The notes beneath the pieces are model-generated. The model searched no databases, was not told the origin of the DNA, and saw nothing but the letters and a program-made list of their open reading frames with translations. The position numbers and the translations under genes were made by a program. Shown in pieces: positions 1 through 33,638 of a stretch of DNA of 61,080 bases. This DNA comes from an uncultured Bacilli bacterium. Its GTDB lineage: Bacteria > Bacillota_I > Bacilli_A > RF39 > UBA660. Within the stretch, counting starts at the first letter, position 1; every line of letters starts with the position of its first letter. The DNA is taken from the NCBI GenBank assembly GCA_947623935.1, contig CANQIE010000003.1, positions 1 to 61,080 on the forward strand. Reading direction: 5' to 3'.

Positions 1-108
1 TTTTATATTCCCCTCAGGATTTCCATAATTAAGTGCACATGAAGTAAAAAACGTGCAGTTAAATAAAAATTTTACGCTTTTTCTTTTGCAAAAAAAATTA
101 ACAAAAAG

Positions 109-136
109 TTGACGTGGGGGGGGGTAGTTTTATAAT
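109..136 (+). promoter_or_regulatory. sigmaA-type promoter with G9 tract in spacer (copy 1)
   Basis: TTGACG (109-114) - T G9 TAGTTT (16 bp) - TATAAT (131-136); same core upstream of three other paralogs. Confidence 0.85.
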
Positions 137-246
137 AAAAATGTAAATAGAATATAAAAACAGTTTCTTTTTAGTTAATTTTGAAGTTTTAATAATAAAA
201 ACAAACTATAATGGAAACTATAAATAATAAAAGGAGAAGTGAAGTT

Positions 247-2184
247 ATGGAAGAGAAAAGGACTAAGAAAGAACTAGTTGCAGTTTGTTTACTTGTATTG
301 AGTCTTATTTTAATTACAATAGGAACCACCTTTGCTTTCTTTCAGTATTCAAAACAAGGACAAATCGAAAATAAATTAGAATCAGGAACATTAACCTTTA
401 TTTATGATGAAAATAGAAAAGACAAAAATGGAGTAAGTCTAACGAATGCTTTTCCAATGAGTGATACTGATGGAACAAAACAAACAGGAACAGGCTTTTT
501 TGAATTCCAAGTAAGATCGAAAGCAAGAGGAGCATCCATTTATTATGAAATCTATTTAACAAAGGATAATAATTCTACTTTACCAGAATATGCGGTAAAG
601 ACTTATTTAACAGAAGTAAGTGATACTGGAACTGAAACAGGAGTATCCAATCTATTTACAAGTGAGGCAATCAATCTATATAGTGAGTTAGGAGAAAGTA
701 AAGTTCCATCGATGTTAAAACAAGAAGTAATTGGAAAGACTTTATATCAAGGAAGTGTAAGTGAAGAAGAGATTACAAAGACATTCCGGTATAGAATGTG
801 GATAGATAATGATGCAAATCAAGTAAGAGGAGGAGAGTGGATTCATAATAATAAAACCTTTTCTGTAAAAGTAAATGTATATGCTCAAAACAATAGTATA
901 CCTGGGCCAACAGATCTAACTGAAATTTGTAATGATAGTAATGTCAATGAACCGAAATTAGTAGAAGGAATGATACCGGTATATTATGATTATGAAGAAG
1001 CAACCTGGAAGAAAGCAAATGCAAAAACCGCTAACTGGTACAATTACTGTAATCAAGAATGGGCGAATGCAGTAACGATAGGATTAGATGCAGATGGAGG
1101 GACCACTCAAAGAGAAGAATATCAAAAAGCATCACCAGATACTCCAATAGAGATGGATGACATTAATACCATGTGGGTATGGATCCCAAGATATGAATAC
1201 AAATATACGAATTTAGGAGAACAGTATGCAGGAGGAACCAAAGAACATCCGGGAGAAATAGAAATTAACTTTATAAATGGAATTAGTGATACACCAAGTA
1301 ATGAAAATTATAAAGTACATCCAGCTTTTACTTTTGGAGATGACAAATTAACAGGCTTCTGGTATGGGAAGTTTGAAACAAGTACAAGCTCTGAGTGTAA
1401 AGAAAGTACAGAAACTTGTAATAAAGCTGATTTAAAACCATACATTAAACCAAATACAACATCCTGGAGGTATGTACAGGTGGCCAATGCATTTTATGCA
1501 TCAAGAAAAATGCAAACAGAAAAATATGCTATTTATGGATTTCCAAATGATGAAAGTTATGATACACATATGAGTAAGGATAGTGAATGGGGTGCAGTTG
1601 CCTACTTATCCCAAAGCCAATATGGCAAATATGGAAATGATGAAGAAGAAGTGTATATCAATAATTGCTCTCAATTGATAACAGGCATCGCAGGAGACAC
1701 TGCTAGTGCGGAGGCAAGTGATAGTACTTGTACTGAAAATACTTATGAAACTTTGAAAGGACAGAAGGCGTCCACGACAGGAAATATTACAGGAGTATAT
1801 GATATGTCTGGAGGAGCAGCTGAATATTCAATGGCTGCACGTAAAGATCCTGATACGGGTAGACTAGCGACATTACTTTCTGGATTTGTTGATGATGAAG
1901 TTAGTGAAAAGAAAATCCCGGACGCTAAATATTATAATTTATATGCAAACAATATATCAACAACAGCATGTGATGGGCAAGTATGTTATGGATATGCCTT
2001 ATCAGAGACTGCATCGTGGTATATTGATTCTGGCTTTTTTGTTGAAAGTCCAACATGGTCTATACGTAGTAATCATTACAACACTGGATTGAATTCAGGT
2101 ATCTTTGCTTGGGCTGTCCTAAGTAATGGATTTGCATGGCCTACCTACTCGTTCCGCATTGTACTTTCTCCTATAGGGGCGTGA
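247..2184 (+). CDS. Surface-anchored protein, family copy 1: N-terminal TM/signal (GTTFAFF), TasA/camelysin-like domain, C-terminal C-type-lectin/FGE-like (DGR-target-like) domain; lacks the two Ig-like repeats of copies 2-4
   Basis: ORF track 211..2184; start moved to ATG 247 after AGGAG RBS. Motifs WVWIPRY, HPAFTFG, WYGKFE, EWGAVAYL, TGNITGVYDMSGG, terminal SFRIVLSP shared with copies 2-4. Confidence 0.8.
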   Translation: MEEKRTKKELVAVCLLVLSLILITIGTTFAFFQYSKQGQIENKLESGTLTFIYDENRKDKNGVSLTNAFPMSDTDGTKQTGTGFFEFQVRSKARGASIYYEIYLTKDNNSTLPEYAVKTYLTEVSDTGTETGVSNLFTSEAINLYSELGESKVPSMLKQEVIGKTLYQGSVSEEEITKTFRYRMWIDNDANQVRGGEWIHNNKTFSVKVNVYAQNNSIPGPTDLTEICNDSNVNEPKLVEGMIPVYYDYEEATWKKANAKTANWYNYCNQEWANAVTIGLDADGGTTQREEYQKASPDTPIEMDDINTMWVWIPRYEYKYTNLGEQYAGGTKEHPGEIEINFINGISDTPSNENYKVHPAFTFGDDKLTGFWYGKFETSTSSECKESTETCNKADLKPYIKPNTTSWRYVQVANAFYASRKMQTEKYAIYGFPNDESYDTHMSKDSEWGAVAYLSQSQYGKYGNDEEEVYINNCSQLITGIAGDTASAEASDSTCTENTYETLKGQKASTTGNITGVYDMSGGAAEYSMAARKDPDTGRLATLLSGFVDDEVSEKKIPDAKYYNLYANNISTTACDGQVCYGYALSETASWYIDSGFFVESPTWSIRSNHYNTGLNSGIFAWAVLSNGFAWPTYSFRIVLSPIGA

Positions 2185-2289
2185 TCAGTATATTCTTATA
2201 AGATACGCACAATAAATTCTATAAATAAATCATGTAAAAATGGTTGAGCATTCTCTATTATTAGTTGTATACTATTATTGAAAAGGAAC

Positions 2290-2316
2290 GTACCTAGGAA
2301 AGATAGGTACTTTTTT
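2290..2316 (+). terminator. Rho-independent terminator
   Basis: GTACCTA-GGAAAGA-TAGGTAC followed by T6. Confidence 0.7.
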
Positions 2317-2327
2317 GTTTGCATATC

Positions 2328-2356
2328 TAGACAAAAATGCTTAATAGTGCTATAAT
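2328..2356 (+). promoter_or_regulatory. sigmaA promoter
   Basis: TAGACA-17 bp-TATAAT with extended -10 TG. Confidence 0.65.
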
Positions 2357-2388
2357 ATAGACTCGTATAGCAGTTAAGGAGGTAGAAC

Positions 2389-2808
2389 ATGACAAAGAAT
2401 CGATTTTTAGTTAAAAACATCTATCTTGGATGGGTACAATATTTAGAAGAGAATGAAAATAAGATTGTAGCTTTTGAGAAGAGAGAAGATTTTTTCTCAA
2501 AAACACCTAGTTATTTACCAGTTCATTCCGATATAGGGTACTATTATGTACAGACTATGGAACCTATTCGTAAAGTGGTATCTAAAAAATTAGGTACTAC
2601 TATTACCCTTCGTAGATTAGATGAAATCATAGATAAAATGAATAGAGAAAAGACGAACTTTATTCTTTCAAAAGAAATGGAACAAGTAGATGAAGTAGTT
2701 ACCGAAAGACCAAAAGATAATTATGAATTTGTTCCTGAAGTAGCAATGGCTAAAGAAGAAGTTAAAGTGATGCGTTACAAAGCAAGAAAAAACCGTAAAG
2801 CTGCTTAG
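2389..2808 (+). CDS. Hypothetical protein
   Basis: 139 aa ORF with AAGGAGG RBS, own promoter and terminator. Confidence 0.75.
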   Translation: MTKNRFLVKNIYLGWVQYLEENENKIVAFEKREDFFSKTPSYLPVHSDIGYYYVQTMEPIRKVVSKKLGTTITLRRLDEIIDKMNREKTNFILSKEMEQVDEVVTERPKDNYEFVPEVAMAKEEVKVMRYKARKNRKAA

Positions 2809-2834
2809 AAAACACGATTAAATTCGTGTTTTTT
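2809..2834 (+). terminator. Rho-independent terminator
   Basis: AAAACACGA-loop-TCGTGTTTT plus T-run. Confidence 0.65.
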
Positions 2835-2884
2835 CTTTAAAAAAGAGGAATTATAAGGTATAATAAAGAACGGAGTGGATAGTA

Positions 2885-5692
2885 ATGGATAAAATTATTA
2901 TTAAGGGAGCAAGAGAAAATAATTTAAAAAATGTAGATATCGAACTTCCTAAAAATAAATTAATAGTTATGACGGGTGTTTCTGGAAGTGGAAAAAGTAG
3001 TTTAGCGTTTGATACTATTTATGCGGAAGGACAACGTCGTTATGTAGAAAGTTTGTCGGCATATGCAAGACAGTTTTTAGGGGGAACGGATAAACCCGAT
3101 GTGGATTCGATTGAAGGATTATCCCCATCGATTAGTATTGATCAAAAAACGACGAGTAAAAATCCACGTTCTACGGTTGGAACCGTTACGGAAATCTATG
3201 ATTATTTTCGTCTTTTGTTTGCCCGTATTGGTACGCCTTACTGTCCAAATCATCATATTCCCATTACTTCTCAATCCGTAGATGAAATTGTGAATAAAAT
3301 TATGGAACGTGAAGTAGGAACAAAACTTATTATTTTATCACCGGTGGTACATGGTGAAAAAGGAACGCATAAAGACTTACTAGACCACTTACGAAGTGAA
3401 GGTTATGTACGGATTCGTATCAATGGCGAAATGATTGATTTAAGTGAAGAAGTAACCTTAGAGAAGAATAAAAAAGATAATATCGATGTCGTGATTGACC
3501 GTATTGTTTTAAAAGAAGATAGCCGGCTTCGTTTAGCCGATTCGGTTGAAAATGCCATTAAATTATCCAAAGGGAAAGTGGTTATCGATTTTGTAGGGGA
3601 TAAAGAGGTGGTATTCTCTGAGAACTTTGCTTGTCCTTACTGTGATTTCTCACTTCCTGAACTAGAGCCTAGAATGTTTAGTTTTAACGCTCCTTTTGGA
3701 GCGTGTCCTGATTGTAAAGGACTTGGTGTTAAACTTAAAATGGATCCGGATTTAGTGGTACCGGACTCCACTAAATCTTTAAATAAAGGCGCTATTAAGA
3801 CTTTAACGGATGATCCAGAAGCCCTTGATTTTAAACGCTTAGAGTGTCTTTGTAAACATTATAAAATCGATATGGACAAGCCCTTTTATAAATTAACAAA
3901 AGCACAACAAGATTATGTTCTTTATGGAAGTGATGAGCCTATTCATTTTAAATATCAATCGAAGAGTGGAAATCTCTATAATAATACGGATTATTACGAA
4001 GGAATTATTAATAATCTAGAACGTCGTTATATGGAAACTTCTTCTACCTGGATTAGAGATTGGCTTGAAAACTATATGATTGAAACCGAATGTGAAACTT
4101 GTCATGGAGCTCGTCTTAAAGATGATGTTTTATCGGTTTTAGTGGGTGGTAAAAACATCTATGAAGTAACGTGCATGAGTATCAAAGAATTAATTCACTT
4201 TTTCGATACATTAAAATTATCGCCTTCTGAAAAAGAAATTGCTGAACTTTTAATTAAAGAAATACAATCTCGTCTTGCTTTCTTATCGAATGTAGGACTC
4301 GATTATTTAACTTTAAGTCGTTCGGCTGGAACGCTTTCTGGAGGAGAAGCACAACGAATAAGACTTGCAACCCAAATTGGCTCGAAACTAACCGGAGTTC
4401 TCTATGTTTTAGATGAACCTTCGATTGGACTTCATCAACGGGATAATGAACGTCTTATTAATTCCCTTAAAGAGATGCGTGATTTAGGAAATACCTTAAT
4501 TGTAGTAGAACACGATACAGATACCATGCTAGCTAGTGACTACTTAGTCGATGTAGGTCCTGGTGCTGGAGAGTATGGTGGCGAAATCGTTGCCAAAGGA
4601 ACTCCTGAAGAAGTCATGAAGAACGAAAACAGTATTACAGGTCGTTACTTATCGGGAAAAGAAAAAATTGATATTCCTAAAACACGTCGTAAAGGAAATG
4701 GAAAGTTTATTGAAATCAAGGGTGCCGAAGAACACAACTTAAAGAAAATCGATGTTAAGATTCCGCTTGGAACGTTTACTTGTGTAACCGGTGTTTCAGG
4801 AAGCGGAAAGAGTAGTTTAATTAATGAGATTCTTTGTAAAGCAGCGAAGGTAGAAATCTATAAATCAAGGATAAAACCAGGTAAATACAAAGATATAAAA
4901 GGTTTAAAAAATATTGATAAAATTGTTGAAATCACGCAAAACCCTATTGGTAGAACGCCACGAAGCAATCCTGCAACATATACGGGTGTTTTCGATGAAA
5001 TTAGAGATTTGTTCACAAATACTAAAGAAGCCAAAATGTTAGGCTATGGTAAAGATCGTTTCTCTTTCAATGTTAAGGGTGGAAGATGTGAAGCTTGTCG
5101 TGGAGATGGTGTTAAGAAAATCGAAATGCACTTCTTACCGGATGTCTATATTCCTTGTGAAGTTTGTCATGGAAGTCGTTATAATCAGGAAACTTTAACG
5201 ATTAAATACAAAGGTAAAAACATTGCCGATGTTCTAGATATGCGGGTAACGGAAGCTTTAAAATTCTTTGAAAATGTGCCTCGTATTAAAAACAAACTAC
5301 AAGTTTTAGAAGATGTAGGAATTGGATATATTAAATTAGGTCAAAGTGCTACTACTTTATCAGGAGGAGAAGCAGGAAGAGTAAAACTTGCTAAAGAACT
5401 ACAGAAAAAACCAACCGGTAAAACCTTATTTGTCTTAGATGAACCAACTACTGGACTTCATTCTCATGACATCAAAAGACTGCTTGCAATATTTCAAAAA
5501 ATAGTAGATAATAAAGATACCGTAGTAATCATTGAACATAACTTAGATGTCATCAAAGTAGCGGATTACATTATCGATTTAGGTCCTGAAGGAGGAGACC
5601 AAGGAGGAACCGTTGTTACTACTGGTACTCCGGAAGAAGTAAGCAAAGTTCAATCCTCTTATACAGGTCAATTCTTAAAAAAGATTTTATAA
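2885..5692 (+). CDS. uvrA: Excinuclease ABC subunit A
   Basis: Two ABC ATPase domains (GVSGSGKS twice, LSGGE signatures), zinc-finger Cys pairs, 935 aa. Confidence 0.98.
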   Translation: MDKIIIKGARENNLKNVDIELPKNKLIVMTGVSGSGKSSLAFDTIYAEGQRRYVESLSAYARQFLGGTDKPDVDSIEGLSPSISIDQKTTSKNPRSTVGTVTEIYDYFRLLFARIGTPYCPNHHIPITSQSVDEIVNKIMEREVGTKLIILSPVVHGEKGTHKDLLDHLRSEGYVRIRINGEMIDLSEEVTLEKNKKDNIDVVIDRIVLKEDSRLRLADSVENAIKLSKGKVVIDFVGDKEVVFSENFACPYCDFSLPELEPRMFSFNAPFGACPDCKGLGVKLKMDPDLVVPDSTKSLNKGAIKTLTDDPEALDFKRLECLCKHYKIDMDKPFYKLTKAQQDYVLYGSDEPIHFKYQSKSGNLYNNTDYYEGIINNLERRYMETSSTWIRDWLENYMIETECETCHGARLKDDVLSVLVGGKNIYEVTCMSIKELIHFFDTLKLSPSEKEIAELLIKEIQSRLAFLSNVGLDYLTLSRSAGTLSGGEAQRIRLATQIGSKLTGVLYVLDEPSIGLHQRDNERLINSLKEMRDLGNTLIVVEHDTDTMLASDYLVDVGPGAGEYGGEIVAKGTPEEVMKNENSITGRYLSGKEKIDIPKTRRKGNGKFIEIKGAEEHNLKKIDVKIPLGTFTCVTGVSGSGKSSLINEILCKAAKVEIYKSRIKPGKYKDIKGLKNIDKIVEITQNPIGRTPRSNPATYTGVFDEIRDLFTNTKEAKMLGYGKDRFSFNVKGGRCEACRGDGVKKIEMHFLPDVYIPCEVCHGSRYNQETLTIKYKGKNIADVLDMRVTEALKFFENVPRIKNKLQVLEDVGIGYIKLGQSATTLSGGEAGRVKLAKELQKKPTGKTLFVLDEPTTGLHSHDIKRLLAIFQKIVDNKDTVVIIEHNLDVIKVADYIIDLGPEGGDQGGTVVTTGTPEEVSKVQSSYTGQFLKKIL

Positions 5693-5701
5693 GGAGAAGC
5701 C

Positions 5702-6133
5702 ATGTCTAAAAAAGAAGAAAAAAAAGAACCCATTGTAACCCCCATTAGTGTTATGGAATGGATTATCTATATGATGGGATATGCCCTTGTTTTACTGGTG
5801 GTATCGCAATTCTTTAAATCGTTTCAGTTGGATTATTCTTATTATGGACTTTATGCTTTTCTAGCAGTAGTTATCATCTATATCTTAAATAAAACGATTA
5901 AACCCATTCTTTTTTACTTAACTTTACCTATTACAGGAGCTACTTTAGGTTTATTTTATCCTGTTTTAAATGTCTTTATTTTAAAGCTTACCGATTGGAT
6001 TTTGTTAGATCACTTTAATTTAACCAATATTTGGATTGCTTTCTTTATAGCGATTTTAATTGCCATTATGAACTTCTTGGTCGAAGGCCTTATTATTAAA
6101 CCTTTAGTAAGGAGGATAAAGAAATATGAGTAG
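5702..6133 (+). CDS. 4-TM phage-holin-family (YvlD-like) membrane protein
   Basis: Four hydrophobic segments, LNKTIKPILFYLTLPITGATLGLF motif, position downstream of uvrA as in Firmicutes. Confidence 0.8.
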   Translation: MSKKEEKKEPIVTPISVMEWIIYMMGYALVLLVVSQFFKSFQLDYSYYGLYAFLAVVIIYILNKTIKPILFYLTLPITGATLGLFYPVLNVFILKLTDWILLDHFNLTNIWIAFFIAILIAIMNFLVEGLIIKPLVRRIKKYE

Positions 6134-6938
6134 AATTGCTCTTGATTTAGGATTTATACAAATTTATTGGTATACGCTTTTCATTTTATTAGCGGTATTA
6201 GTAGGATGTACTGTTATTTATCTAGAGGTTCGTAAGCAAAAATTCAATGTCGATTTTTTCATTAACCTTTTGTTTTATAGCATTCTCTTTGGCTTGATTG
6301 GAGCAAGACTTTACTATGTGTTATTTAACCTTGATTATTATTTAAAATATCCAATCGAAATTTTCGAGGTATGGAATGGTGGGCTTGCAATTCATGGCGG
6401 TATTTTTGCAGGGCTCCTCTTTATTATCATCTATACCCATCGTTACAAAGTAAAAACATTAAAAGTTTTAGATATGGTAACCCCGGGTCTTTTAATTGGA
6501 CAGGCGATTGGTAGATGGGGGAATTTCTTTAATCAAGAAGCTTTTGGTGCTATTACGACAAAAGAAGCCATTGAAAAATTAGGGGTACCGGAGGCCATTG
6601 TCGAAGGAATGAAAATCGATGGATTCTATCGTCAACCTACCTTTTTATACGAATCCATTTGGAACTTCTTTGGTTTTCTCATTCTTTTGATGTTAAGAAG
6701 ATATCGTTATATTAAAACAGGACAATTAACCGGATTCTATTTAATGTGGTATTCTTTTGGAAGATTCTTTATTGAAGGAATGCGTACCGATAGTCTCATG
6801 CTAGGACCTCTTCGTATTGCGCAAGTGGTATCTGTTATCCTCTTTATCGTAGGACTTATCTTATTCTTCTTTGCTAAGAGAGGATCTAAGTTCGATAACT
6901 TATATAAGGAGGAGAACAAGGATGAAGTTAGATTTTGA
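6126..6938 (+). CDS. lgt: Prolipoprotein diacylglyceryl transferase
   Basis: GARLYYV, GGLAIHGG, GQAIGRWGNFFNQE, PTFLYES, RFFIEGMRTD motifs. Confidence 0.97.
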   Translation: MSRIALDLGFIQIYWYTLFILLAVLVGCTVIYLEVRKQKFNVDFFINLLFYSILFGLIGARLYYVLFNLDYYLKYPIEIFEVWNGGLAIHGGIFAGLLFIIIYTHRYKVKTLKVLDMVTPGLLIGQAIGRWGNFFNQEAFGAITTKEAIEKLGVPEAIVEGMKIDGFYRQPTFLYESIWNFFGFLILLMLRRYRYIKTGQLTGFYLMWYSFGRFFIEGMRTDSLMLGPLRIAQVVSVILFIVGLILFFFAKRGSKFDNLYKEENKDEVRF

Positions 6939-7836
6939 TGTTATTGTTATAGGCGCAGGTCTTGGTGGCTTGCTTGCAAGTTTCTATCTTGAAGCAAGAG
7001 AAAAAAGTTGTCTTCTTTTAGAAAAGGAGATTCCAGGTGGACAATTAAATGAAATTTCACTTATGGAAGGATACCCAATTGTAGGGGAAATGAGTGGATC
7101 CCATCTTGCCGAAGAGTTATTAAATCAGGCTCAAGAGATGGGAGTTTGTTACCGGTATGGTGATGTGAAAGAAATAAGGAACCTAGGCGATTATAAAGAA
7201 GTGGTTACTTCTCAAGAAGTGATTTCTTGCAAGTATGTTCTTCTTGCCATGGGAAGTAGACCTATGTTATTAGGGTTAGATAATGAAAAACAACTTTTGG
7301 ATCGTGGCATTCATTATGCTTTCGACGGAAATGAAGCTTTTTATATGAATAAAGAAGTAGCTATTGTTGGTAATAGTGAAGAGGCAGTTCTTGGGGCTAT
7401 TAGGTTAGCAAATCTTGCAAAAGAAGTACATTTAATTGCTTCAACGGAAGATTTAATGGTAGCTCCTTATCTTAAGAAAAGACTTAAAACAAAAGAAAAT
7501 GTTTCTGTTTCTTATTGCACCGAAATTCGTCAATTACTTGAAGAAGAGAGTCATTTGATGGGGCTTCGTCTAGTAAATAGGCGAGCAAATGAAGAGAAAA
7601 TACTTCCGGTTGAAGGATGCTTTGTCTTCATAGGAAGAGTTCCCAATAGTGAGTGTGCCTTATCGCTTGGTATTACAGATGAAGAGGGCTCTATTTTAGT
7701 AGATACGCATAATGAAACGAAGATTCGCAATATTTTTGCAGTCGGAGATGTGGTAAAAAAAGAAGATTATCAATTAGAAACTATTCTTTCCGATTGTGCA
7801 GTTGCATCTCGCGCTATTGTATATCGAAATAATTAA
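6922..7836 (+). CDS. Thioredoxin-reductase-like FAD oxidoreductase lacking the CxxC active site
   Basis: GAGLGG FAD motif, PGGQ, AMGS, IFAVGDV; the canonical CATCDG is replaced by AFDG. Start moved to ATG 6922 after AAGGAGG. Confidence 0.8.
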   Translation: MKLDFDVIVIGAGLGGLLASFYLEAREKSCLLLEKEIPGGQLNEISLMEGYPIVGEMSGSHLAEELLNQAQEMGVCYRYGDVKEIRNLGDYKEVVTSQEVISCKYVLLAMGSRPMLLGLDNEKQLLDRGIHYAFDGNEAFYMNKEVAIVGNSEEAVLGAIRLANLAKEVHLIASTEDLMVAPYLKKRLKTKENVSVSYCTEIRQLLEEESHLMGLRLVNRRANEEKILPVEGCFVFIGRVPNSECALSLGITDEEGSILVDTHNETKIRNIFAVGDVVKKEDYQLETILSDCAVASRAIVYRNN

Positions 7837-7862
7837 TAAAAAGAATAAAAGAGGAGTTATTT

Positions 7863-8072
7863 ATGACATTAATGAATAAATTTTTAATTGGTCTTACGCT
7901 AGTATTATTTATACTGGGAATTATCTTTTTTACGATGTATTTAACGAATCGAAAAAAGGTGGATCCTGAAAATAAAAAGCAAGTACGTAATCAAAAGTTA
8001 AACTTTTATCTTGCACTTTATCTATTGATTGGATCTCTAGTCGTAGGACTATTTCTATTTATTATTTTTTAA
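7863..8072 (+). CDS. Small 2-TM membrane protein
   Basis: 69 aa, two hydrophobic helices flanking a basic loop, GAGGAG RBS. Confidence 0.7.
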   Translation: MTLMNKFLIGLTLVLFILGIIFFTMYLTNRKKVDPENKKQVRNQKLNFYLALYLLIGSLVVGLFLFIIF

Positions 8073-8074
8073 AT

Positions 8075-8100
8075 AAGCATCTAGCGATAGTGCTTTTTTT
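8075..8100 (+). terminator. Rho-independent terminator directly upstream of promoter copy 2
   Basis: AAGCA-T-CTA-GCGA-TAG-TGCTT plus T-run. Confidence 0.65.
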
Positions 8101-8122
8101 GTGAAAAAAAGTAAACAAAAAG

Positions 8123-8150
8123 TTGACGTGGGGGGGGGTAGTTTTATAAT
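8123..8150 (+). promoter_or_regulatory. sigmaA-type promoter with G9 tract in spacer (copy 2)
   Basis: TTGACG (8123-8128), G9 at 8130-8138, TATAAT (8145-8150), 16-bp spacer. Confidence 0.85.
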
Positions 8151-8184
8151 AGAAATAGATAAATAATAAAGGAAGTGTAGAAAG

Positions 8185-10488
8185 GTGAAGATAAAAGGAA
8201 GACAACAGGTAGCCTTGTTTTTATTTTTATTAGGGATGATTTGCTTGTTATCCGGAACTAGTTATGCTTTCTATGAAGTACTTTATGAAGGAAGAACAGA
8301 AAATAAATTAGAAGCAGGAAGTTTTGCGATCGCTTTTGAAAATAAAAGTAATACTATAACACTCGATAATGCATATCCCATGAGTGATGAAGAAGGAAAT
8401 AATCTTGATCCTTTTCGTTTTTCAATAACGAATAATGGAACCCTTGCTTCCAAGTATCAATTAAGTATAGAAGAAGATAGTAAGAACACGTTAAGTCGAG
8501 GATATTTAAAATATAGTTTAAAGAGAAATAATGAAGAAATAACTAGTCCTTCTACTTTATCTAGTTTAATCATAGTAGATAATCAAACATTGGAACCAGA
8601 AGCAGTAGATAATTATGAATTAAGAATATGGTTAGATTATAATACACCAAATGAAGCAATGAATCAAATATGGAAAGGAAAGATAAAGTTAGTAGCCCAT
8701 GATAATGGAGTACAATATATAGAAGACCATATAGCCCCAACCATAGAACTAGAAGGTAAATTAGTCATGACGATTGAAAAAGGAGGAACCTTTACTGATC
8801 CGGGAGTAAAATCTGTAACAGATAATGTAGATAAAACAATAGATAAAAGTAAAGTAACTACTCGTTATGAATATTATGATGGAGATAAAGTAAGTACAGT
8901 AACCAGTGTAGATACAGGAAAAGAAGGAGTATATATCATCTATTATGAAATAAAAGATGAAAGTGGAAATAAAGGAGTAATAGCAAGGACTGTAAATGTA
9001 GTACAAGTAAATAAGAGTGCTCCAACGATTACTTTAGTAGGAGAAAGTACCTTAACGTATGCAAGAGGAAATTACTATGTAGAACCTGGAGCAACAGCTA
9101 AAGATGAACAGAATAATGATTTAACCAATCAAATGATAACAATTCATAATTTAAACTTAAATATAGAAGAAGACCAAGTAGTGAAATACTTTGTAATAGA
9201 TAAAGATGGAAACATAGGAGGGAACACAAGAAATATACATGTAGTGCCTGCCTATAAAGATAATACCAATGCCAATGAACCAAAGATCGTTGAAGGAATG
9301 ATACCAGTAAAGTGGGATGAAGGTTTACAAAAATGGGTCAAAGTAGATATGATAGATCAATGGTACAATTATGAAATACAAGAATGGGCGAATGCGGTAA
9401 CCGTTTCTGAAACAAGAAGAAAAGAATACCAAACTGCAGCAAAAGATACACCAATAGAGATGGATGACATTAATACGATGTGGGTATGGATACCAAGATA
9501 TGAATATAAATATACCAATTTGGGAACACAATATGCAGGAGGAACACAAGAACAACCAGGAGAAATAGGAATCAACTTTATAAATGGAACGAGTAGCAAA
9601 GTAAGTGATGAAAATAATTACAAGATGCATCCAGCATTCACTTTTGGAGATAAAGAACTAACAGGAATCTGGTATGGAAAGTTTGAAACAAGTAATAAAG
9701 AAGAAAAATTTACGACTAATGTGGGTTCTAATAGTTCAACATTAACTCCAATCATAAAGCCGGGAGTAGTATCATGGAGATGGGTGCAAATATCGAATAT
9801 ATTTTATGCCTCAAGAAAGATGCAAACAGAGAAATATGCTGTTTATGGATTTCCAAATAGTGAAAATTATGATACCCATGTAAGTAAGGCCCGTGAATGG
9901 GGAGCAGTTGCTTATTTATCTCAAAGTAAGTATGGAAAATATGGAAATAGTAATTATGATATAGATAGTAAAGAAGTTACTAAAAATAGGTTCAATATAA
10001 CGGGAAATGGCTTCAATAATGCAGAAACTTATGAAACCGAAGGGGGTCAAAAAGCGTCCACGACCGGAAATATCACAGGAGTGTATGATATGAATGGTGG
10101 AATATGGGAATATGTTATGACCGTATATGCTGATAGTGAAGGAAAGCCAAGAAGTGGACAAGATGCTACTAAAAATTCAGGCTTTAATGGAACACTTTCT
10201 GATAATACAAAGTATACTGAAGGGGAAGACTTTCCAGATGCTAAATATTATGATTTATATACAGGAGGTTCTGATACTGCATGTAATGGAGGAATCTGTT
10301 ATGGATATGCTTATTCTGAAACTAGAAGTTGGTATCATAATATGTTCGGAACACCATATTCTTTAAACCCATGGGTTGTTTATGGAGGATCTTTAGATAT
10401 GGCTACATTAACAGGAGTGTTTGCTATTGGTAATATTTCTGGTTATATACAAGTTAACATGTCATTTCGTCTTGTACTTGCTCCATAA
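8185..10488 (+). CDS. Surface protein family copy 2: TM/signal, TasA-like domain, two DUF5011/HYR-like Ig repeats, C-terminal CLec/FGE-like domain
   Basis: GTG start; APTIEL..TFTDPGV and APTITLVG..YVEPGATAKD Ig repeats; N-terminal part nearly identical to copies 3 and 4. Confidence 0.85.
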   Translation: MKIKGRQQVALFLFLLGMICLLSGTSYAFYEVLYEGRTENKLEAGSFAIAFENKSNTITLDNAYPMSDEEGNNLDPFRFSITNNGTLASKYQLSIEEDSKNTLSRGYLKYSLKRNNEEITSPSTLSSLIIVDNQTLEPEAVDNYELRIWLDYNTPNEAMNQIWKGKIKLVAHDNGVQYIEDHIAPTIELEGKLVMTIEKGGTFTDPGVKSVTDNVDKTIDKSKVTTRYEYYDGDKVSTVTSVDTGKEGVYIIYYEIKDESGNKGVIARTVNVVQVNKSAPTITLVGESTLTYARGNYYVEPGATAKDEQNNDLTNQMITIHNLNLNIEEDQVVKYFVIDKDGNIGGNTRNIHVVPAYKDNTNANEPKIVEGMIPVKWDEGLQKWVKVDMIDQWYNYEIQEWANAVTVSETRRKEYQTAAKDTPIEMDDINTMWVWIPRYEYKYTNLGTQYAGGTQEQPGEIGINFINGTSSKVSDENNYKMHPAFTFGDKELTGIWYGKFETSNKEEKFTTNVGSNSSTLTPIIKPGVVSWRWVQISNIFYASRKMQTEKYAVYGFPNSENYDTHVSKAREWGAVAYLSQSKYGKYGNSNYDIDSKEVTKNRFNITGNGFNNAETYETEGGQKASTTGNITGVYDMNGGIWEYVMTVYADSEGKPRSGQDATKNSGFNGTLSDNTKYTEGEDFPDAKYYDLYTGGSDTACNGGICYGYAYSETRSWYHNMFGTPYSLNPWVVYGGSLDMATLTGVFAIGNISGYIQVNMSFRLVLAP

Positions 10489-10544
10489 TAATTTTTGCTA
10501 TTTTTCCTTTTCCTTGTTATACTTAAAACAAGAGGTGAAAAGAG

Positions 10545-11480
10545 ATGTCTTTTTCTACGACTATTAAAAATGAATTAACCAAAATAGATACAACTAGGTC
10601 AGAGAAAATTGCACTTCTTTCTGCCTTTTTTCGTAATAATGCCATTTATACTAGTGATAAGATTGAACTGGTCACTGAAAATAGTACAGTGGCTAAATAT
10701 TTGTTTCAATTATTAAAAGATACCTATCAAGTCACCTTGCAAATAGAAAAAAAGAAAAATAATAACTTTACTCGAGGTAATCTTTATATGATGACGGTGG
10801 TAGAAAAAATTGATCTTATTTTGAAAGATTTATCCGTTATTAGTGAGCATGGATATTATTTGGTAGAACCGATGGATTATATTGTTTCAACATTAGAAGA
10901 TCAAGCAGCTTATCTTAGAGGGTTGTTTCTTGCCAAAGGAAGTATCAACGATCCTAAGACTTCTAGATATCATTTAGCATTCTCAATAGACACGATTGAG
11001 GAAGCTACCTTTGATCAAGATTTACTTAATAACTTTGATTTAAATAGTAAAATTATTACCCGTGATAAAGGCTATATGGTCTATATTAAGGAAGCAGAAA
11101 AGATAGGTGACTTTTTACGATTGATTCGTGCAAGTAATGCCCTTTTCTATTATGAAGATATTCGTATTTATAGAGATCATAAAAATATGGCAAATCGTCT
11201 TAATAACTGTGAACAAGCAAATATTGATAAGACCATTGAAACCGCTACAAAACAGGTTCGGGATATTGAATATTTAATCGATGAAGTAGGACTCGATTTA
11301 TTGGATGATAAGACCAAAGAAGCGGCCACTTATCGACTTAAGTATCCAGAAAGTTCACTAATCGAATTAAGTGAAATTATTTCTTTAGAAACCGGAAATA
11401 AAATAACGAAGTCGGGTCTTAATCATCGTTTTCGTAAGATTCGAGATTTAGTTAGCAGAATGAAGCAAACAAAAAGATAG
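10545..11480 (+). CDS. whiA: DNA-binding protein WhiA
   Basis: YLRGLFLAKGSINDP, NRLNNCEQANIDKT, ITKSGLNHRFRKI motifs. Confidence 0.95.
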   Translation: MSFSTTIKNELTKIDTTRSEKIALLSAFFRNNAIYTSDKIELVTENSTVAKYLFQLLKDTYQVTLQIEKKKNNNFTRGNLYMMTVVEKIDLILKDLSVISEHGYYLVEPMDYIVSTLEDQAAYLRGLFLAKGSINDPKTSRYHLAFSIDTIEEATFDQDLLNNFDLNSKIITRDKGYMVYIKEAEKIGDFLRLIRASNALFYYEDIRIYRDHKNMANRLNNCEQANIDKTIETATKQVRDIEYLIDEVGLDLLDDKTKEAATYRLKYPESSLIELSEIISLETGNKITKSGLNHRFRKIRDLVSRMKQTKR

Positions 11481-11485
11481 AAGCC

Positions 11486-12064
11486 CTATCTTTTTTCTAT
11501 AATATCATCAATTAATCCATATTCTTTTGCTTCTTTGGCATCTAAGAAATGATCTCGTTCGGTATCTTGTTCAATTTTTTCTAATGGTTTTCCGGTATTT
11601 TTGGCAAGCATTTCATTGAGACGTTTTTTCATTTTTAAAATATGTTCGGCAGCAATTTGAATTTCGGTTGCTTGTCCTTTTGCTCCACCTAGGGGTTGAT
11701 GAATCATTACTTCGGCATTAGGAAGTGCAAATCTTTTTCCTTTGCTTCCACAGGAAAGGAGAAAAGCGGCCATACTTGCAGCCATTCCGACACATATAGT
11801 GGAGACATCACTTTTAATAAAGTTCATGGTATCCAATATTGCCATTCCAGCAGTGATAACGCCTCCTGGAGAGTTAATATATAACGAGATATCATCATGA
11901 TTTAAAGAATCCAAATAAAGAAGTTGAGCCACTACTAAATTAGCAGAGTCATCATCGATTTCACCGCTTAACAAAATAATTCGATTTTTTAAGAGTCTTG
12001 AGAAAATATCGTAGCTTCGTTCTCCATTTGCTTCTCTTTCAACTACCATAGGTACTAAATTCAT
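11486..12064 (-). CDS. clpP: ATP-dependent Clp protease proteolytic subunit
   Basis: [26 protein letters not shown] (catalytic Ser), MIHQPLGG. Confidence 0.98.
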
Positions 12065-12222
12065 AAAATAATCACCTATTAATAAGATTAGAAAAATAGA
12101 TACATTTTATTCCATTTCTTTCTGATTATGGAAAGTAAAATCTCGACAAAATATCTTTCCAATGTGTCCTCTTTTTTTTTCTTCTTATTTATGGTACAAT
12201 AGGCATAGAATAGAATAAGTGG

Positions 12223-13887
12223 GTGACTTTTGTGATGGAAAATATTAAAGTTAAAGTCCAAGATCAAATGTTGGAAATAGGAAAAAATACAACTTTTTTA
12301 GAACTTAGCAAAAACTATGAAAAAGACTTTGCTTATCCTATTGTTATTGCGTCTTTTAATGGAGTATATCAAGAATTAAATCAACCTATTAAAAAAGAAG
12401 GTGTTATTTCTTTTTATGATTTAAAAGATCGAACAGCCAATCGTATTTATTTAAATGGACTTATCTTTTTAACTTTGTGTGCAGGTAAGGAATTGTTTGG
12501 TCCATCTTCAAATTACAAGGTACTTCATTCTCTTGATAAAGGACTCTATATTGAGACGGACGTTTCTTTAACGGAAGAAAAAGTTACAAGATTAGAACAA
12601 AAAATGCATGAGTTAGTAGCTCTTGAACTTCCAATTACCAAGATGAATGTTACTAGAATTGATGCTATTCAGTATTTCGATAGCATAGGGGATACGGCAA
12701 AAGCAGATATTATGCGCTATAACACCAATACTTATGTTACTTTATACAAATTAGGAAACAACTATAGCTATTTCTATGGATTAATGCCGGTTAATACCAA
12801 ACAATTATCTTCTTTTGAACTTACTTATTTAAATGAAGAAGGCTTTGTTTTAAGATTTCCTACTATCTATATGGAAAAGGGCATTAAACCTTATGAGCAT
12901 CGTGAAAAAATGTTCCAAGCCTTTAACGAATCTAGAACTTGGGAAAAAGTAATGCATCTTGAAAATGTTGGGGAATTAAACAAAGTTGTTTCGCAAGGAA
13001 ACATAGGTGATATTATTCGTATCTCTGAAACATTACAAAATCAAAAACTTTTGGAGATTGCAAGAGCGATTGAACAAAGAAGAAATGAGATTAAAGTCAT
13101 TTTAATCGCGGGGCCTACTTCTTCCGGAAAAACGACAACGAACCGTAAATTATCGATGTATTTACGCAGTTTTGGAATGAATCCGATTCCTTTATCGATG
13201 GATGATTACTTTAAAGATCGAAACGATACACCGCTTGGAAGTGATGGAGAACCTGATTTTGAATGTTTAGAAGCAGTTGATTTGGAATTATTTAATAATC
13301 AAATAGCCGCTCTTTTAAAAGGAGAAACAGTTACGGTTCCAACCTTCAATTTTTTAGTAGGTATGAAAGAATTTAAGAACAAAATTCACTTGGGCGAAAA
13401 TGAACTCTTATTGATTGAAGGAATTCATGGATTAAATCCTGCTATTTTAAAGGATATTCCTAAGAGTCAAAAATGTAAGATTTACTTATCGCCTTTAACG
13501 ACATTAAGTATTGATAATCAAAATCGTATTCCATCTACTGATAACCGTCTTCTAAGAAGAATTGTAAGAGATAATAAAACAAGAGGTTACAAAGTGGAAG
13601 ATACGCTTAAAATATGGTCTAAAGTAAGAGCCGGAGAAGAAAAATATATTTTCCCATATCAAGATGAAGGTGATTTTATTTTTAACACCTCTTTAATCTA
13701 TGAATTAGGCGTTTTAAAAACCTATGTTGAACCACTTCTTTATTCTGTTGATGCATCTAGTCCTTATTACGAAGAAGCGAAACGGCTTATTAATTTTTTA
13801 AGGGCTTTTTTACCGATTCCATCGGAAGATATTCCAGACGATTCCATATTACGAGAATTTATTGGAAAAAGTTGTTTCCATGAATAA
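12223..13887 (+). CDS. Uridine/nucleoside kinase with N-terminal ThrRS-like domain
   Basis: AGPTSSGKTT P-loop, SMDDYF, EGIHGLNP, RLLRRIVRD..TRG, EEKYIFPYQ. Confidence 0.88.
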   Translation: MTFVMENIKVKVQDQMLEIGKNTTFLELSKNYEKDFAYPIVIASFNGVYQELNQPIKKEGVISFYDLKDRTANRIYLNGLIFLTLCAGKELFGPSSNYKVLHSLDKGLYIETDVSLTEEKVTRLEQKMHELVALELPITKMNVTRIDAIQYFDSIGDTAKADIMRYNTNTYVTLYKLGNNYSYFYGLMPVNTKQLSSFELTYLNEEGFVLRFPTIYMEKGIKPYEHREKMFQAFNESRTWEKVMHLENVGELNKVVSQGNIGDIIRISETLQNQKLLEIARAIEQRRNEIKVILIAGPTSSGKTTTNRKLSMYLRSFGMNPIPLSMDDYFKDRNDTPLGSDGEPDFECLEAVDLELFNNQIAALLKGETVTVPTFNFLVGMKEFKNKIHLGENELLLIEGIHGLNPAILKDIPKSQKCKIYLSPLTTLSIDNQNRIPSTDNRLLRRIVRDNKTRGYKVEDTLKIWSKVRAGEEKYIFPYQDEGDFIFNTSLIYELGVLKTYVEPLLYSVDASSPYYEEAKRLINFLRAFLPIPSEDIPDDSILREFIGKSCFHE

Positions 13888-14379
13888 AAAGATATTCACA
13901 AGTCTTGTGCATATCTTTTTTTCGTTAAATTAAGAGATAAAGTCACGGTAAGGGAAAAAATAAATTTTTAGTTGAAAGTTCTCTAAAATCAAAGAAAATA
14001 AAGAAAAAAATTTAGAAAAATTTAAAGGAAATGATGAAAAACAGAGAAAATTACATAAAAAATTACATCCAAAAAGAACGAGAAGTTAAAAAAATTTTTT
14101 TGAAAAGAAGAAACTTCTCGCCAAATAAATAATAGATTTGCTATATTATAACAAATATTATGATAGATAACAAATAAAGGAGAACTTTATTTGCAAGAAT
14201 ATTATATAAGGGAAAAGAAAAAATACAAGGGTCAAGATAAACAAATAAATTTGTCCTTGTATTTATTTCTTTTCCCCTTTGATAGTTAAAAAGTAACGTC
14301 TCGTAAGAGTAAAAACGTGACGTTAAGTAAATAATTTACAGCATATCTTTTTTTCTTTTGAAAAAAAATTAACAAAAAG

Positions 14380-14407
14380 TTGACGTGGGGGGGGGTAGTT
14401 TTATAAT
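14380..14407 (+). promoter_or_regulatory. sigmaA-type promoter with G9 tract in spacer (copy 3)
   Basis: TTGACG (14380-14385), G9 at 14387-14395, TATAAT (14402-14407), 16-bp spacer. Confidence 0.85.
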
Positions 14408-14441
14408 AAAAATAGATAAATAATAAAGGAAGTGTAGAGCG

Positions 14442-16775
14442 ATGAAGATAAAAGGAAGACAACAGGTAGCCTTGTTTCTATTTTTATTGGGAATGATCTG
14501 CTTGTTATCAGGAACAAGTTATGCTTTCTATGAAGTACTTTATGAAGGAAGAACAGAAAATAAATTGGAAGCAGGAAGCTTTGCCATCGCTTTTGAAAAT
14601 AAAAGTAATACTATAACACTAGATAATGCATATCCCATGAGTGATGAAGAAGGAAATAATTTGGATCCTTTTCGTTTTTCAATAACGAATAATGGAACCC
14701 TTGCTTCCAAGTATCAATTAAGTATAGAAGAAGATAATAAGAACACGTTAAGTCGAGGATATTTAAAATATAGTTTAAAGAGAAATAATATAGAAGTAAC
14801 TGGTCCTTCTACTTTATCTAGTTTAATCATAGTAGATAATCAAACATTAGCACCAGAAGCAGTAGATAATTATGAATTAAGGATATGGTTAGATTATAAT
14901 ACGCCTAATGAAGCCATGAATCAGATATGGAAAGGGAAGATAAAGTTAGTAGCTCATGATAATGGAGTACAATATATAGAAGACCATATAGCCCCAACCA
15001 TAGAACTAGAAAAAGAATTAGTCATGACGATTGAAAAAGGAGGGACCTTTACTGATCCGGGAGTAAAATCTGTAACAGATAATAAAGATACAAATTTAGA
15101 TAAAGAAAAAGTAACTAGAAGATATGAGTATTATGATGGAGATAAAGTAAGTACAGTAACTGGTGTAGATACAGGAAAAGAAGGAGTATACATTATTTAT
15201 TATGAAATAAAAGATGAAAGTGGAAACAAAGGAGTAATAGCAAGGACTGTAAATGTAGTACAAGTCAATGAGAAAGCTCCAACAATAACTTTAGTAGGAG
15301 AAAGTACCTTAACGTATGCCAAAGGGAATTATTATGTAGAGCCTGGAGTAGAAGCCAAAGATGAACAGAATAATGATTTAACAAATCAAGTGATAACAAT
15401 TCATAATTTGAACTTAAATATAGAAGAAGACCAAGTAGTCAAATACTTTGTAATAGATAAAGATGGAAACATAGGAGGAGCAACGAGAACAATTAAAGTA
15501 GTTCCAGCTTATAAAGATAATACCAATGCCAATGAACCAAAGATAGTTGAAGGAATGATACCAGTAAAGTGGGATAAAAGTTTACAAAAATGGGTCAAAG
15601 TAGATATGATAGATCAATGGTACAATTATGAAATACAAGAATGGGCGAATGCGGTAACCGTTTCTGAAACAAGAAGAAAAGAATACCAAACAGCAGCAAA
15701 AGATACGCCAATAGAGATGGATGACATTAATACGATGTGGGTATGGATACCAAGATATGAATACAATTATGTAAGTATTGCAAATTATGCAGGAGGAACT
15801 CAAGCTCAACCAGGAGAAATAAAAGTTAACTTTATAAGTGGGACCAGTAGCAAAGTAAGTGATGAATATAATTACAAGATGCATCCAGCATTCACTTTTG
15901 GAGATAAAGAACTAACAGGAATCTGGTGTGGAAAATTTGAACCAAGTAACGAAGAAGGAATATATGGAGATAATAATGATGAAAAAGCTAATGATGCAAT
16001 GTTAACACCCATCATAAAACCAAATGTTCCTTCATGGAGAAATATACAAGTAGCAAACGCCTTTTATGCATCAAGAAAGATGCAAACTGAGAAGTATGAT
16101 GTCTATGGATTTCCAAATAACGAAACTTATGATACCCATATGAGTAAGAATAGTGAATGGGGTGCAGTTGCCTATCTATCTCAAAGTAAGTATGGAAAAT
16201 ATGGAAAAGATAAACAAGAAGTATACATCAATAACTGTTCTCAATTTATTACAGGAATAGCAGGAAATACAGCAAGTGAAAGTTCAAGTGCAGAAACTTG
16301 TAAAACAAATACTTATGAAACAGAAGCAGGCCAAAAAGCATCTACAACGGGCAACATATATGGAATCTACGATATGCATGGTGGAGCTAGGGACTATGTC
16401 ATGGGAGCATTAAATGATAATGGCAAACCAAAAATAGCAAGTTCAGGATTTACTGATGATACTAATGAGAATACAAAATTACCGAATGCTAAATATTATG
16501 ACTTATATACGAGTGCCAATCCTGATTCCGATGATGTAAGTTCATACATGACGGCTTGTAATAACGGAGTATGTTACGGTCATGCCTTATCTGAAACTGC
16601 AAGGTGGTATTGGGCTTCTTGGTCTTTTATAACTTCTTCGAGTCCGTGGCTCATGCACGGCGGTCGAGGTGGCGGTAGCGGTAGCGGTGGCATTGGAGAA
16701 GGAATGTATCGTGTTGACCATCAAACTGGCGCCATGAATTCCGTCTTTACATTTCGTCTCATGCTTGCCCCTTAA
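14442..16775 (+). CDS. Surface protein family copy 3 (same architecture as copy 2)
   Basis: Near-identical N-terminus to copies 2 and 4; divergent C-terminus ending TFRLMLAP. Confidence 0.85.
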   Translation: MKIKGRQQVALFLFLLGMICLLSGTSYAFYEVLYEGRTENKLEAGSFAIAFENKSNTITLDNAYPMSDEEGNNLDPFRFSITNNGTLASKYQLSIEEDNKNTLSRGYLKYSLKRNNIEVTGPSTLSSLIIVDNQTLAPEAVDNYELRIWLDYNTPNEAMNQIWKGKIKLVAHDNGVQYIEDHIAPTIELEKELVMTIEKGGTFTDPGVKSVTDNKDTNLDKEKVTRRYEYYDGDKVSTVTGVDTGKEGVYIIYYEIKDESGNKGVIARTVNVVQVNEKAPTITLVGESTLTYAKGNYYVEPGVEAKDEQNNDLTNQVITIHNLNLNIEEDQVVKYFVIDKDGNIGGATRTIKVVPAYKDNTNANEPKIVEGMIPVKWDKSLQKWVKVDMIDQWYNYEIQEWANAVTVSETRRKEYQTAAKDTPIEMDDINTMWVWIPRYEYNYVSIANYAGGTQAQPGEIKVNFISGTSSKVSDEYNYKMHPAFTFGDKELTGIWCGKFEPSNEEGIYGDNNDEKANDAMLTPIIKPNVPSWRNIQVANAFYASRKMQTEKYDVYGFPNNETYDTHMSKNSEWGAVAYLSQSKYGKYGKDKQEVYINNCSQFITGIAGNTASESSSAETCKTNTYETEAGQKASTTGNIYGIYDMHGGARDYVMGALNDNGKPKIASSGFTDDTNENTKLPNAKYYDLYTSANPDSDDVSSYMTACNNGVCYGHALSETARWYWASWSFITSSSPWLMHGGRGGGSGSGGIGEGMYRVDHQTGAMNSVFTFRLMLAP
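15723..15866 (+). repeat. 144-bp perfect identity patch shared with 35056-35199
   Basis: Manual base-by-base comparison; copies 1 and 2 carry a different sequence in this segment. Confidence 0.85.
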
Positions 16776-16863
16776 TACTTCTTTATTCTATTTATTCATT
16801 TTATTTACTTGTATAAATTAAAAAAAATGGGTATAATGAGTATGATAGAAAGGATAGAGGAAA

Positions 16864-33617: not shown

Positions 33618-33638
33618 GCCCAAAAAATTAACAAAAAG

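Follow-up and report, generated by a model that had tools for sequence, protein, structure and literature searches.

Homopolymer-controlled surface variation is textbook knowledge for pathogens of the genera Neisseria, Campylobacter, Helicobacter, Treponema and Mycoplasma. To our knowledge, it has hardly been described in uncultured commensal gut lineages. Here we report on four copies of a promoter that contains a pure run of nine guanines (G9), each located upstream of a predicted surface-protein gene, in a 61,080-nucleotide (nt) stretch of DNA from an uncultured Bacilli bacterium (GenBank assembly GCA_947623935.1, contig CANQIE010000003.1, positions 1 to 61,080, forward strand); this whole stretch is hereafter referred to as the window. 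Promoter repeats are well known in the Mollicutes, including the poly-A tract of Mycoplasma hyorhinis vlp, the TA repeats of M. mycoides Vmm and M. capricolum Vmc, and the GAA repeat of M. gallisepticum vlhA. As is generally known, these organisms are reduced-genome, low-GC relatives of the Bacilli in which surface-protein multigene families have a repeat-containing promoter for each gene, and in vlp, Vmm and Vmc the repeat acts through the length of the promoter spacer. The Mollicute products are lipoproteins with repetitive regions, their spacer tracts are of A or TA, and tract lengths typically differ among paralogs within a clone. The family described here, in contrast, combines Ig-like domains and a C-type-lectin fold with a TasA/camelysin-like signal, and its tract is of G, with nearly all paralogs at one length.

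In Treponema pallidum, the tpr paralogs and tp0126 carry promoter poly-G runs of ~7-12 nt that affect the level of transcription; the run of tp0126 lies between the -35 and -10 elements, with the best activity at a 17-nt spacer, and tprL is mostly G9 in isolates (about 81%) with minorities of G7-G11, its G8 reporter being active and its G10 reporter near background (PMC7864442). The system described here is similar in that poly-G runs occupy the promoters of a paralogous putative surface-protein family, with G9 as the modal length, as in tprL. It differs in that T. pallidum, a spirochaete, is a pathogen whose genome is GC-rich and contains about a dozen tpr genes, whereas here dozens of identical promoters occur in an AT-rich commensal of the Bacilli. 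Moreover, the run of tprE, tprG, tprJ and tprL abuts or overlaps the -10 element, and the dependence of expression on run length that was demonstrated in T. pallidum is proposed here by analogy. In Neisseria meningitidis, a poly-G run lies between the -35 and -10 elements of porA, and opc and fetA have poly-C tracts (PMC3639595). Single-unit slippage at porA changes the promoter spacing and yields graded expression of a surface protein, as is proposed below, and porA variation is tied to immune escape; these are single genes of a Gram-negative pathogen whose length variation is well documented, both between strains and within cultures, whereas we describe a large family with a consensus length that is constant in the lineage of the window. 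The poly-T 'rheostat' of Helicobacter pylori sabA (PMC4081817) is likewise a homopolymer close to the promoter, and it tunes the expression of an adhesin instead of switching it, although its T tract lies next to the -35 element, has its effect by way of the axial alignment of elements upstream and concerns a single locus.

The 28-mer TTGACGTGGGGGGGGGTAGTTTTATAAT was found on the forward strand of the window at positions 109-136, 8123-8150, 14380-14407 and 33639-33666, without mismatches, and no further sites were found in the window with up to three mismatches allowed. It was absent from 100 dinucleotide-preserving shuffles (0 expected by chance). The motif reads TTGACG-T-G9-TAGTTT-TATAAT, so that the two hexamers are separated by a 16-nt spacer consisting of T, G9 and TAGTTT. 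In the stretch scanned for promoters (positions 1-17000), its three copies are the joint-top sigma-70-like matches, agreeing at 11 of 12 hexamer positions, and the total of promoter-like sites in this AT-rich DNA was not above that of shuffles. Guanine runs in the window (33% GC) comprise 41 of G4, 15 of G5, none of G6-G8 and four of G9 (0.02 expected); the four promoter runs are thus the only ones longer than 5 nt, and the longest cytosine run is also 5. The initial annotation, which had noted four identical motif copies with a 16-nt spacer and an otherwise general lack of long G runs, was accurate on both points. The promoter cores and an associated leader segment are as follows:

100-137, forward strand: promoter core, copy 1 (-35 at 109-114, G9 at 116-124, -10 at 131-136)
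8114-8151, forward strand: promoter core, copy 2 (-35 at 8123-8128, G9 at 8130-8138, -10 at 8145-8150; ortholog at locus L087 also G9)
14371-14408, forward strand: promoter core, copy 3 (-35 at 14380-14385, G9 at 14387-14395, -10 at 14402-14407; orthologs at L001, L087 and L088 all G9)
33630-33667, forward strand: promoter core, copy 4 (-35 at 33639-33644, G9 at 33646-33654, -10 at 33661-33666; orthologs at L090, L091 and L092 all G9)
145-220 (copy 1) and about 33675-33745 (copy 4), forward strand: extra leader segment of ~75 nt, from an alignment of the four regions

Here and below, L numbers denote related loci and contigs. Alignment and pairwise identities showed that a 38-nt core, aacaaaaag followed by TTGACGTGGGGGGGGGTAGTTTTATAAT and a, is 100% identical in all four copies, and that a 62-nt block around it is 89-95% identical. 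Upstream of the core is an A-rich stretch, beyond which the sequences are unrelated (50-64%); homology among the window copies reaches 25-30 nt upstream of the G run. A paralogous open reading frame (ORF) lies downstream of every promoter copy, at a distance from block to start codon of 46 nt in copies 2 and 3 and of 111-122 nt in copies 4 and 1. The extra ~75-nt leader (…AGTTTCTTTTTAGTTAA…TTTTAATAATAAAAAnAAACTATAATGGAAA…) is common to copies 1 and 4 only and contains a second TATAAT. Copies 1 and 4 share this leader although their coding sequences (CDSs) are only 66-73% identical in nucleotides, so the promoter and leader modules seem to have been exchanged independently of the coding parts. 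The core of copy 1 is likewise identical to the others despite this CDS divergence, which argues that the promoter, including its G9, is held constant by selection, gene conversion, or both. Rfam covariance models for riboswitch and RNA leader families, applied to the whole window including the leader at the gathering score, gave no matches.

In the window the motif is exclusive to one gene family, whose members are:

247-2184, forward strand: family gene 1, 645 amino acids (aa), with an N-terminal anchor or signal ending in ...GTTFAFFQ and the conserved C-terminal domain, lacking the two Ig-like domains
8185-10488, forward strand: family gene 2, 767 aa, with two Bact_surface_Ig-like domains and a C-terminal domain with a weak FGE-sulfatase match
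14442-16775, forward strand: family gene 3, 777 aa, with an AlphaFold2 (AF2) model of predicted local distance difference test (pLDDT) score 88
33766-36108, forward strand: family gene 4, 780 aa, with two Bact_surface_Ig-like domains

The N-terminal hydrophobic helix of each protein ends in ...G(T/A)(S/T)(Y/F)AF(Y/F) and resembles a TasA/camelysin-type signal, with PF12389 matched in some homologs. It is followed by two PF16403 Ig-like domains, both absent from copy 1, and by a conserved C-terminal domain of ~400 aa with a weak Pfam match to FGE-sulfatase. The product of gene 1 is 48% identical to that of gene 3, and its CDS is 66-73% identical to the others in nucleotides. No NCBIfam match and no PDB sequence match were obtained for the family proteins, and the fold search alone was informative. 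The AF2 model of gene 3 consists of an N-terminal helix, a beta-sandwich, two Ig-like domains and a C-terminal domain for which the best PDB fold match by Foldseek was TaqVP (PDB 5vf4, E 6e-9, TM score 0.44 on target), a protein of the C-type lectin/FGE fold; other fold matches of the model were to Ig-like adhesin and S-layer domains. Based on sequence and model, the products are predicted to be anchored, adhesin- or lectin-like surface proteins that are diversifying. More than 2,900 entries in the protein database belong to the family, all of them unnamed. The likeness to TaqVP, the variable protein of a diversity-generating retroelement, concerns the protein and not the promoter: both have a ligand-binding C-type lectin/FGE fold in the service of surface diversification, but diversity here would arise from the number of paralogs and possibly from promoter tracts rather than from mutagenic retrohoming. 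A reverse transcriptase or template repeat was not seen in the window, although no search was aimed at either.

The neighboring genes are housekeeping genes, including uvrA, lgt, whiA, clpP, gap, pgk, tpiA, dinB and a ribosomal protein operon. Separately, although relatives of this lineage bear the labels Tenericutes or Mycoplasma, the window encodes a Spo0A equivalog at 30353-31132 (TIGR02875, 276.8 bits, the cut-off being 200), and related contigs carry Coat_F (L173) and a SpoIIGA-like Peptidase_U4 adjoining a sigma factor (L174). Together these genes suggest that reduced-genome gut Bacilli of this lineage may sporulate.

To follow the family through the clade, 80 loci were retrieved from species-representative genomes and another 80 from metagenome contigs, with the proteins as guide. 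The family is carried by uncultured metagenome-assembled genomes (MAGs) from the gut of rabbit, chicken, human and mouse, whose records bear the labels Bacilli, Tenericutes, Mycoplasma sp. CAG:611 or Ca. Onthousia, the last of which NCBI places in Bacilli incertae sedis; we take the family-carrying MAGs to belong to the GTDB order RF39. In many of these reduced-genome gut Bacilli, uninterrupted runs of G6-G13 precede family genes, and a run of at least G6 is present at 25 of the 55 family genes with complete 5' ends. Runs of at least G7 are oriented 33:0 (sense to antisense) in 568 kb of related loci and 23:1 in 420 kb. Where a run of at least G8 has a recognizable downstream ORF, it nearly always lies 27-180 nt upstream of a gene for a family protein or another secreted protein, one of the latter having a prepilin-like leader. 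In a separate case, at L044:1831-1900, a TTGACAGGTA-G10-TAATGC-TATAAT promoter precedes a fusion of the family's C-terminal domain with an N-terminus of the type IV prepilin kind (VKEKGFTLIELLAVIVIL…).

The sequences that flank the run fall into at least seven promoter types that cannot be aligned with one another:

Type A: TTGAC[GAC]T-G9-T[AG]GTTT-TATAAT
Type B: TTGACT-G9-TATGTTTGGNN-TATAAT
Type C: GTTTACAAnnnGTTACYT-G6-11-YAsTTTA
Type D: TTGACAAYACCCAAT-G10-TATGMT
Type E: TTGACWTTTTYRAT-G10-TAsTAT
Type F: AATAAAAYY-G8-TAGTTTWAAAGATATAAT
Type G: TTGACAACCT- or TTGACAT-G8-TRTWTTA-TATAAT

The window promoters belong to type A. The run is nevertheless conserved across the clade, being uninterrupted in all cases save L002 (GGGGTGGGG), and its integrity between unalignable flanks argues that the homopolymer as such is under selection and not a product of chance. 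A search for the type A promoter with a variable run (GTTGACGTG5-N0-12-TAGTTTTATAAT) gave no matches in the GTDB representative genomes or in the metagenome contigs, neither of which includes the window species. Two further observations concern individual promoters. A family member at L083:2850-3010 (65% aa identity), located between rluD and a rhomboid gene in a rabbit sample that also carries the window species, has the same TTGACG and leader without a G run (TTGACG-18 nt-TAAAAT) and is possibly a constitutive version. At type C loci (e.g. L018:2830-2870 and L029:4368-4400), a small AT-rich hairpin, AGTAA-N3-5-TTACT, lies downstream of the run and is followed by TTTCTTTC; GTTACYT occurs once directly before the run and again within the hairpin, which may act as a leader attenuator or a second regulatory layer.

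We propose, with a probability of roughly 55% and by analogy with porA, tp0126 and tpr, that the G run is a mutable spacer that provides each gene with a 'volume control' of its expression. Each site would be a promoter for the housekeeping sigma factor, driving one gene of a very large family of surface-protein paralogs, with transcription presumably starting downstream of TATAAT, and G9 would be the selected, slippage-prone part of the -35/-10 spacer. With G9, the 16-nt spacer would make a working but sub-optimal promoter, presumably of moderate activity. Gain of one G by slipped-strand mispairing would bring the spacer to the 17-nt optimum and raise activity, while losses would shorten it further, and we infer that length changes alter expression, those other than the single gain lowering it. 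Each paralog would thereby drift stochastically, heritably and reversibly between expression levels, with most copies in the population at one modal, selected length, and such switching would extend to the four window loci themselves.

Geometry and length changes in relatives are part of the evidence on this proposal. For each run, we chose as -35 the hexamer most like TTGACA in the 12 nt before it and as -10 the hexamer most like TATAAT in the 14 nt after it. The distance from -35 to run ranges over 0-9 nt and that from run to -10 over 0-12 nt, and the two compensate each other to totals of 15-21 nt, which supports the run being part of a real promoter spacer. Spacers of 16 nt occur in types A and G(b) (17 copies) and spacers of 19-20 nt in types G(a), B and D and at L044 and L085 (19 copies), with a single case of 17 nt (L158) and none of 18 nt. 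That the optimum of 17-18 nt is nearly absent, although the hexamers are perfect, suggests a modal state kept sub-optimal on purpose; it is also the chief ground for the competing view, discussed below, in which an accessory factor or DNA structure takes part. The 17-nt case is itself a +1 variant, since L158 is of the G(b) type (G8, 16 nt) and carries G9; together with G10 copies in the source sample (see below), it bears out the expectation of the initial annotation that a run one G longer would give a 17-nt spacer.

Run length changes are observed in several relatives of the window. An identical 650-aa protein in identical synteny (P0043) is preceded by G10 in one sample and by G7 in another, with one flank substitution. 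At a chicken-gut Ca. Onthousia locus (L054), the run is G9 without gaps in X15, X22, X23 and the MAG (X numbers denote sequencing runs), and in X11 a contig linked to the unique flank has no mismatches and one gap; G10 is the probable length there, judged from depths and gap counts, a +G being the only compatible indel listed. Tandem paralogs have runs of G6, G9 and G9 at L029 and of G9 and G10 at L125, and the P0066 copies have G11, G11 and G13, the G13 copy lying at a low-coverage contig end. Among chicken samples with about 25-55 copies per genome-equivalent, the share of G10 ranges between samples from 0-29% and that of G8 from 0-17%, and a G6 form occurs too. These comparisons support the view that run length changes on short timescales in the relatives.

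The window sequence itself is present in four sequencing runs (X1-X4) of one rabbit gut metagenome sample. Run-level comparison was performed on Logan contigs of 30 sequencing runs, which were built with k=31 and so break inside the 55-nt repeat, drop rare variants and usually do not allow a run length to be tied to a unique flank across that repeat; two sequencing runs with 'organism A' (X5 and X6) were at 2-5x and too divergent to be informative. Single-copy flanks had a word depth of ~15 and the promoter block a summed depth of 780-1,870, depending on the identity threshold. This corresponds to roughly 60-100 copy-equivalents in the source sample, an estimate from summed contig depths that is an upper bound per genome, as part of the depth may come from related strains or species. 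Distinct contigs that run into or out of the promoter block number in the dozens, and many contigs of X1-X4 join segments of different paralogs from window positions 1-17000 (e.g. 1077>15718, 9702>16074 and 9781>1491), which indicates many further mosaic family members in the source sample and frequent recombination or gene conversion within the family. A G10 form lies at the end of a 6.5-kb contig, found in several sequencing runs, and represents a distinct locus. A second G10 form is a 53-nt contig that equals the copy 1 sequence over 98-146 plus one G; it has about single-copy depth, was found in three of four replicate runs, and is either allelic or paralogous.

Several findings weigh against the mutable-spacer proposal, the first group of them being the constancy of run length at the promoter type of the window. 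G9 is found at nine distinct loci of this type, namely the four in the window and L004, L005, L009, L173 and L176; L004, L005 and L009 are from another rabbit MAG, and their flanks carry substitutions yet the run is G9. All seven orthologous comparisons with three other samples gave G9, a comparison of low power because the strains are 99.3-100% identical to the window, near-clonal, from one study and represented by consensus contigs. Within the source sample, G9 accounts for about 96-99% of copy depth and G10 for 1-4%, and no G8 was reported among the ~60-100 copy-equivalents. The human-gut type gives the same picture, with G8 in 14 of 14 G(a) copies despite several flank substitutions, so that length diversity is lower than substitution diversity. 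This constancy at types A and G(a) argues that, at the consensus level, run length is under purifying selection, and neutral hypervariation is excluded. Geometry, too, is not uniform across types: spacers of 16 and of 19-20 nt are found with perfect hexamers and those of 17-18 nt almost never, and types C and F are without a usable -35 element, although the G6 form of type C would set TTACTT 17 nt from TAAAAT. Finally, a promoter with near-consensus hexamers 16 nt apart is unlikely to be truly OFF, and graded 'volume control' therefore fits better than an ON/OFF switch. The phase-variable switch suggested by the initial annotation is partly supported, in that these are promoters of a surface-protein family with a selected run; independent switching of each locus and an effect of length on expression, both of which it had suggested, may apply. 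Slippage is supported by the length changes in relatives (P0043, L054, L029 and L125), against a strikingly constant G9 at the promoter type of the window; the invariance that the initial annotation had named as contrary evidence was found in part, at the level of these near-identical strains of the window lineage, and not in the relatives. Since tprL is mostly G9 and nonetheless varies from G7 to G11 within isolates, an invariant consensus is compatible with switching within populations.

Tight constancy is what a fixed-length cis element would show, and this is the main competitor to the mutable spacer, a possible reading that we hold to be doubtful. A family-specific regulator or a sigma-associated factor would bind at the run or, in a variant to which the same doubt extends jointly, the run would form a rigid, A-form-prone stretch of poly(dG).poly(dC) on which promoter geometry or the response to supercoiling depends. 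Either way the run would co-regulate the whole family, and the occasional length changes would be mildly deleterious mutations and not a switch. Consistent with such an element, lengths are type-specific and tightly kept (G9 in type A, G8 in type G, G10 in types D and E), the 3' flank G(n)-[TC]A[GC]TTT is retained across otherwise unalignable types, and run plus gap to TATAAT amounts to 15 nt in both type A (9+6) and type G (8+7). Between the human-gut sub-types G(a) and G(b), moreover, the TTGACA element shifts by 3 nt while run length (G8) and the distance from run to TATAAT (7 nt) stay fixed. The many copies with perfect hexamers at 19-20 nt would normally need an accessory factor, all copies in one genome share one state, and the runs keep strictly to the sense strand, although common descent of promoter and gene would also account for that bias. 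Against a fixed element, no candidate regulator was identified, and the spacers (e.g. ACCT-G8-TGTTTTA and T-G9-TAGTTT) are without the dyad symmetry or inverted repeat that MerR-type binders require. Lengths also range from 6 to 13 across and within types between near-identical flanks, including G10 versus G7 at one ortholog, and what is kept is the purity of the homopolymer and not a degenerate G-rich consensus, with L002 as the only interrupted case. Three other readings were considered and rejected: a MerR-type promoter with an over-long spacer, for which the dyad operator was not found and the window spacer is 16 and not 19-20 nt; alternative sigma factors (SigB, SigH, SigD, sigma-54, sporulation sigmas and the Bacteroidetes -7 element), whose motif order and spacing are unlike those found here in an informal by-eye comparison; and a transcribed leader with reiterative transcription, as no conserved promoter lies upstream of the block and the -10 element is only ~20-30 nt from the start codon in several types.

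The remaining explanations are far less probable. A functionless run, copied together with promoter and gene and homogenized by gene conversion, would suit a family that is mosaic and recombinogenic, with many paralog 'joints' in the contigs and with promoter and leader modules shared between paralogs of divergent CDS. Yet an unselected G9 should decay in a genome of 33% GC, whereas the run remains uninterrupted where flanks no longer align among rabbit, chicken, human and mouse gut MAGs and is restricted to secreted-protein genes, which makes a passive relic improbable. The same mosaicism, and the strict orientation of the G-rich strand, could also mark the run as a recombination signal or breakpoint at which promoters or genes are exchanged within the family, in a role like that of the gonococcal pilE G-rich element. 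The P0066 CDS is indeed 99.95% identical in two samples, with homology beginning exactly at the run and unrelated upstream flanks (L084:1-120, TTGACAacatt-G11-ATAATG; L085:1022-1145, TTGCAAaaatcactt-G11-TATAATG), but these junctions are at contig ends or repeats and are possibly assembly chimeras. Homology among the window copies continues 25-30 nt upstream of the run, and a single G9 run in AT-rich flanks cannot fold an intramolecular quadruplex, which needs four G tracts; we rate a recombination signal as slightly more improbable still. A sequencing or assembly artefact, such as poly-G from two-color chemistry, could be suspected where runs lie at contig ends (L076 at position 1; L086 at position 11, with 2.5x coverage). 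It is effectively refuted by the recovery of the same internal run and flanks from independent studies, assemblers and hosts, on contigs linked to single-copy sequence.

Beyond the mutable spacer of individual genes, the data allow a tentative extension to which we give somewhat worse than even odds, namely an order-level 'phasome' of dozens, possibly 50-100, lectin-fold paralogs per ~2-Mb genome, each gated by its own poly-G. The 16-nt and 19-20-nt classes would then represent promoters that are poised and mostly low, with a few copies escaping this state. An equally new alternative would be that a dedicated factor reads the G run as a promoter element not described before.

No publication that connects these lineages with phase variation or with variation based on homopolymers turned up in our literature search. 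Within a known class of mechanism, what appears to be undescribed is the lineage, the protein family, a scale of dozens of identical promoters, and the conservation of the run throughout the clade. A run of G8 or longer upstream of family genes offers a sequence handle by which the repertoire could be found and counted, and a target for deep sequencing. If graded control by a mutable spacer is true, consensus sequences of MAGs hide this layer of variation, and throughout an order of common, uncultivated gut bacteria a lectin-like surface repertoire under stochastic tuning takes up a large share of the small genome, which would bear on persistence against host immunity and phages and perhaps on resistance to cultivation. 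Should the phasome also be real, widespread commensals of rabbits, chickens, mice and humans would vary their surfaces in a combinatorial way, much as Mycoplasma does.

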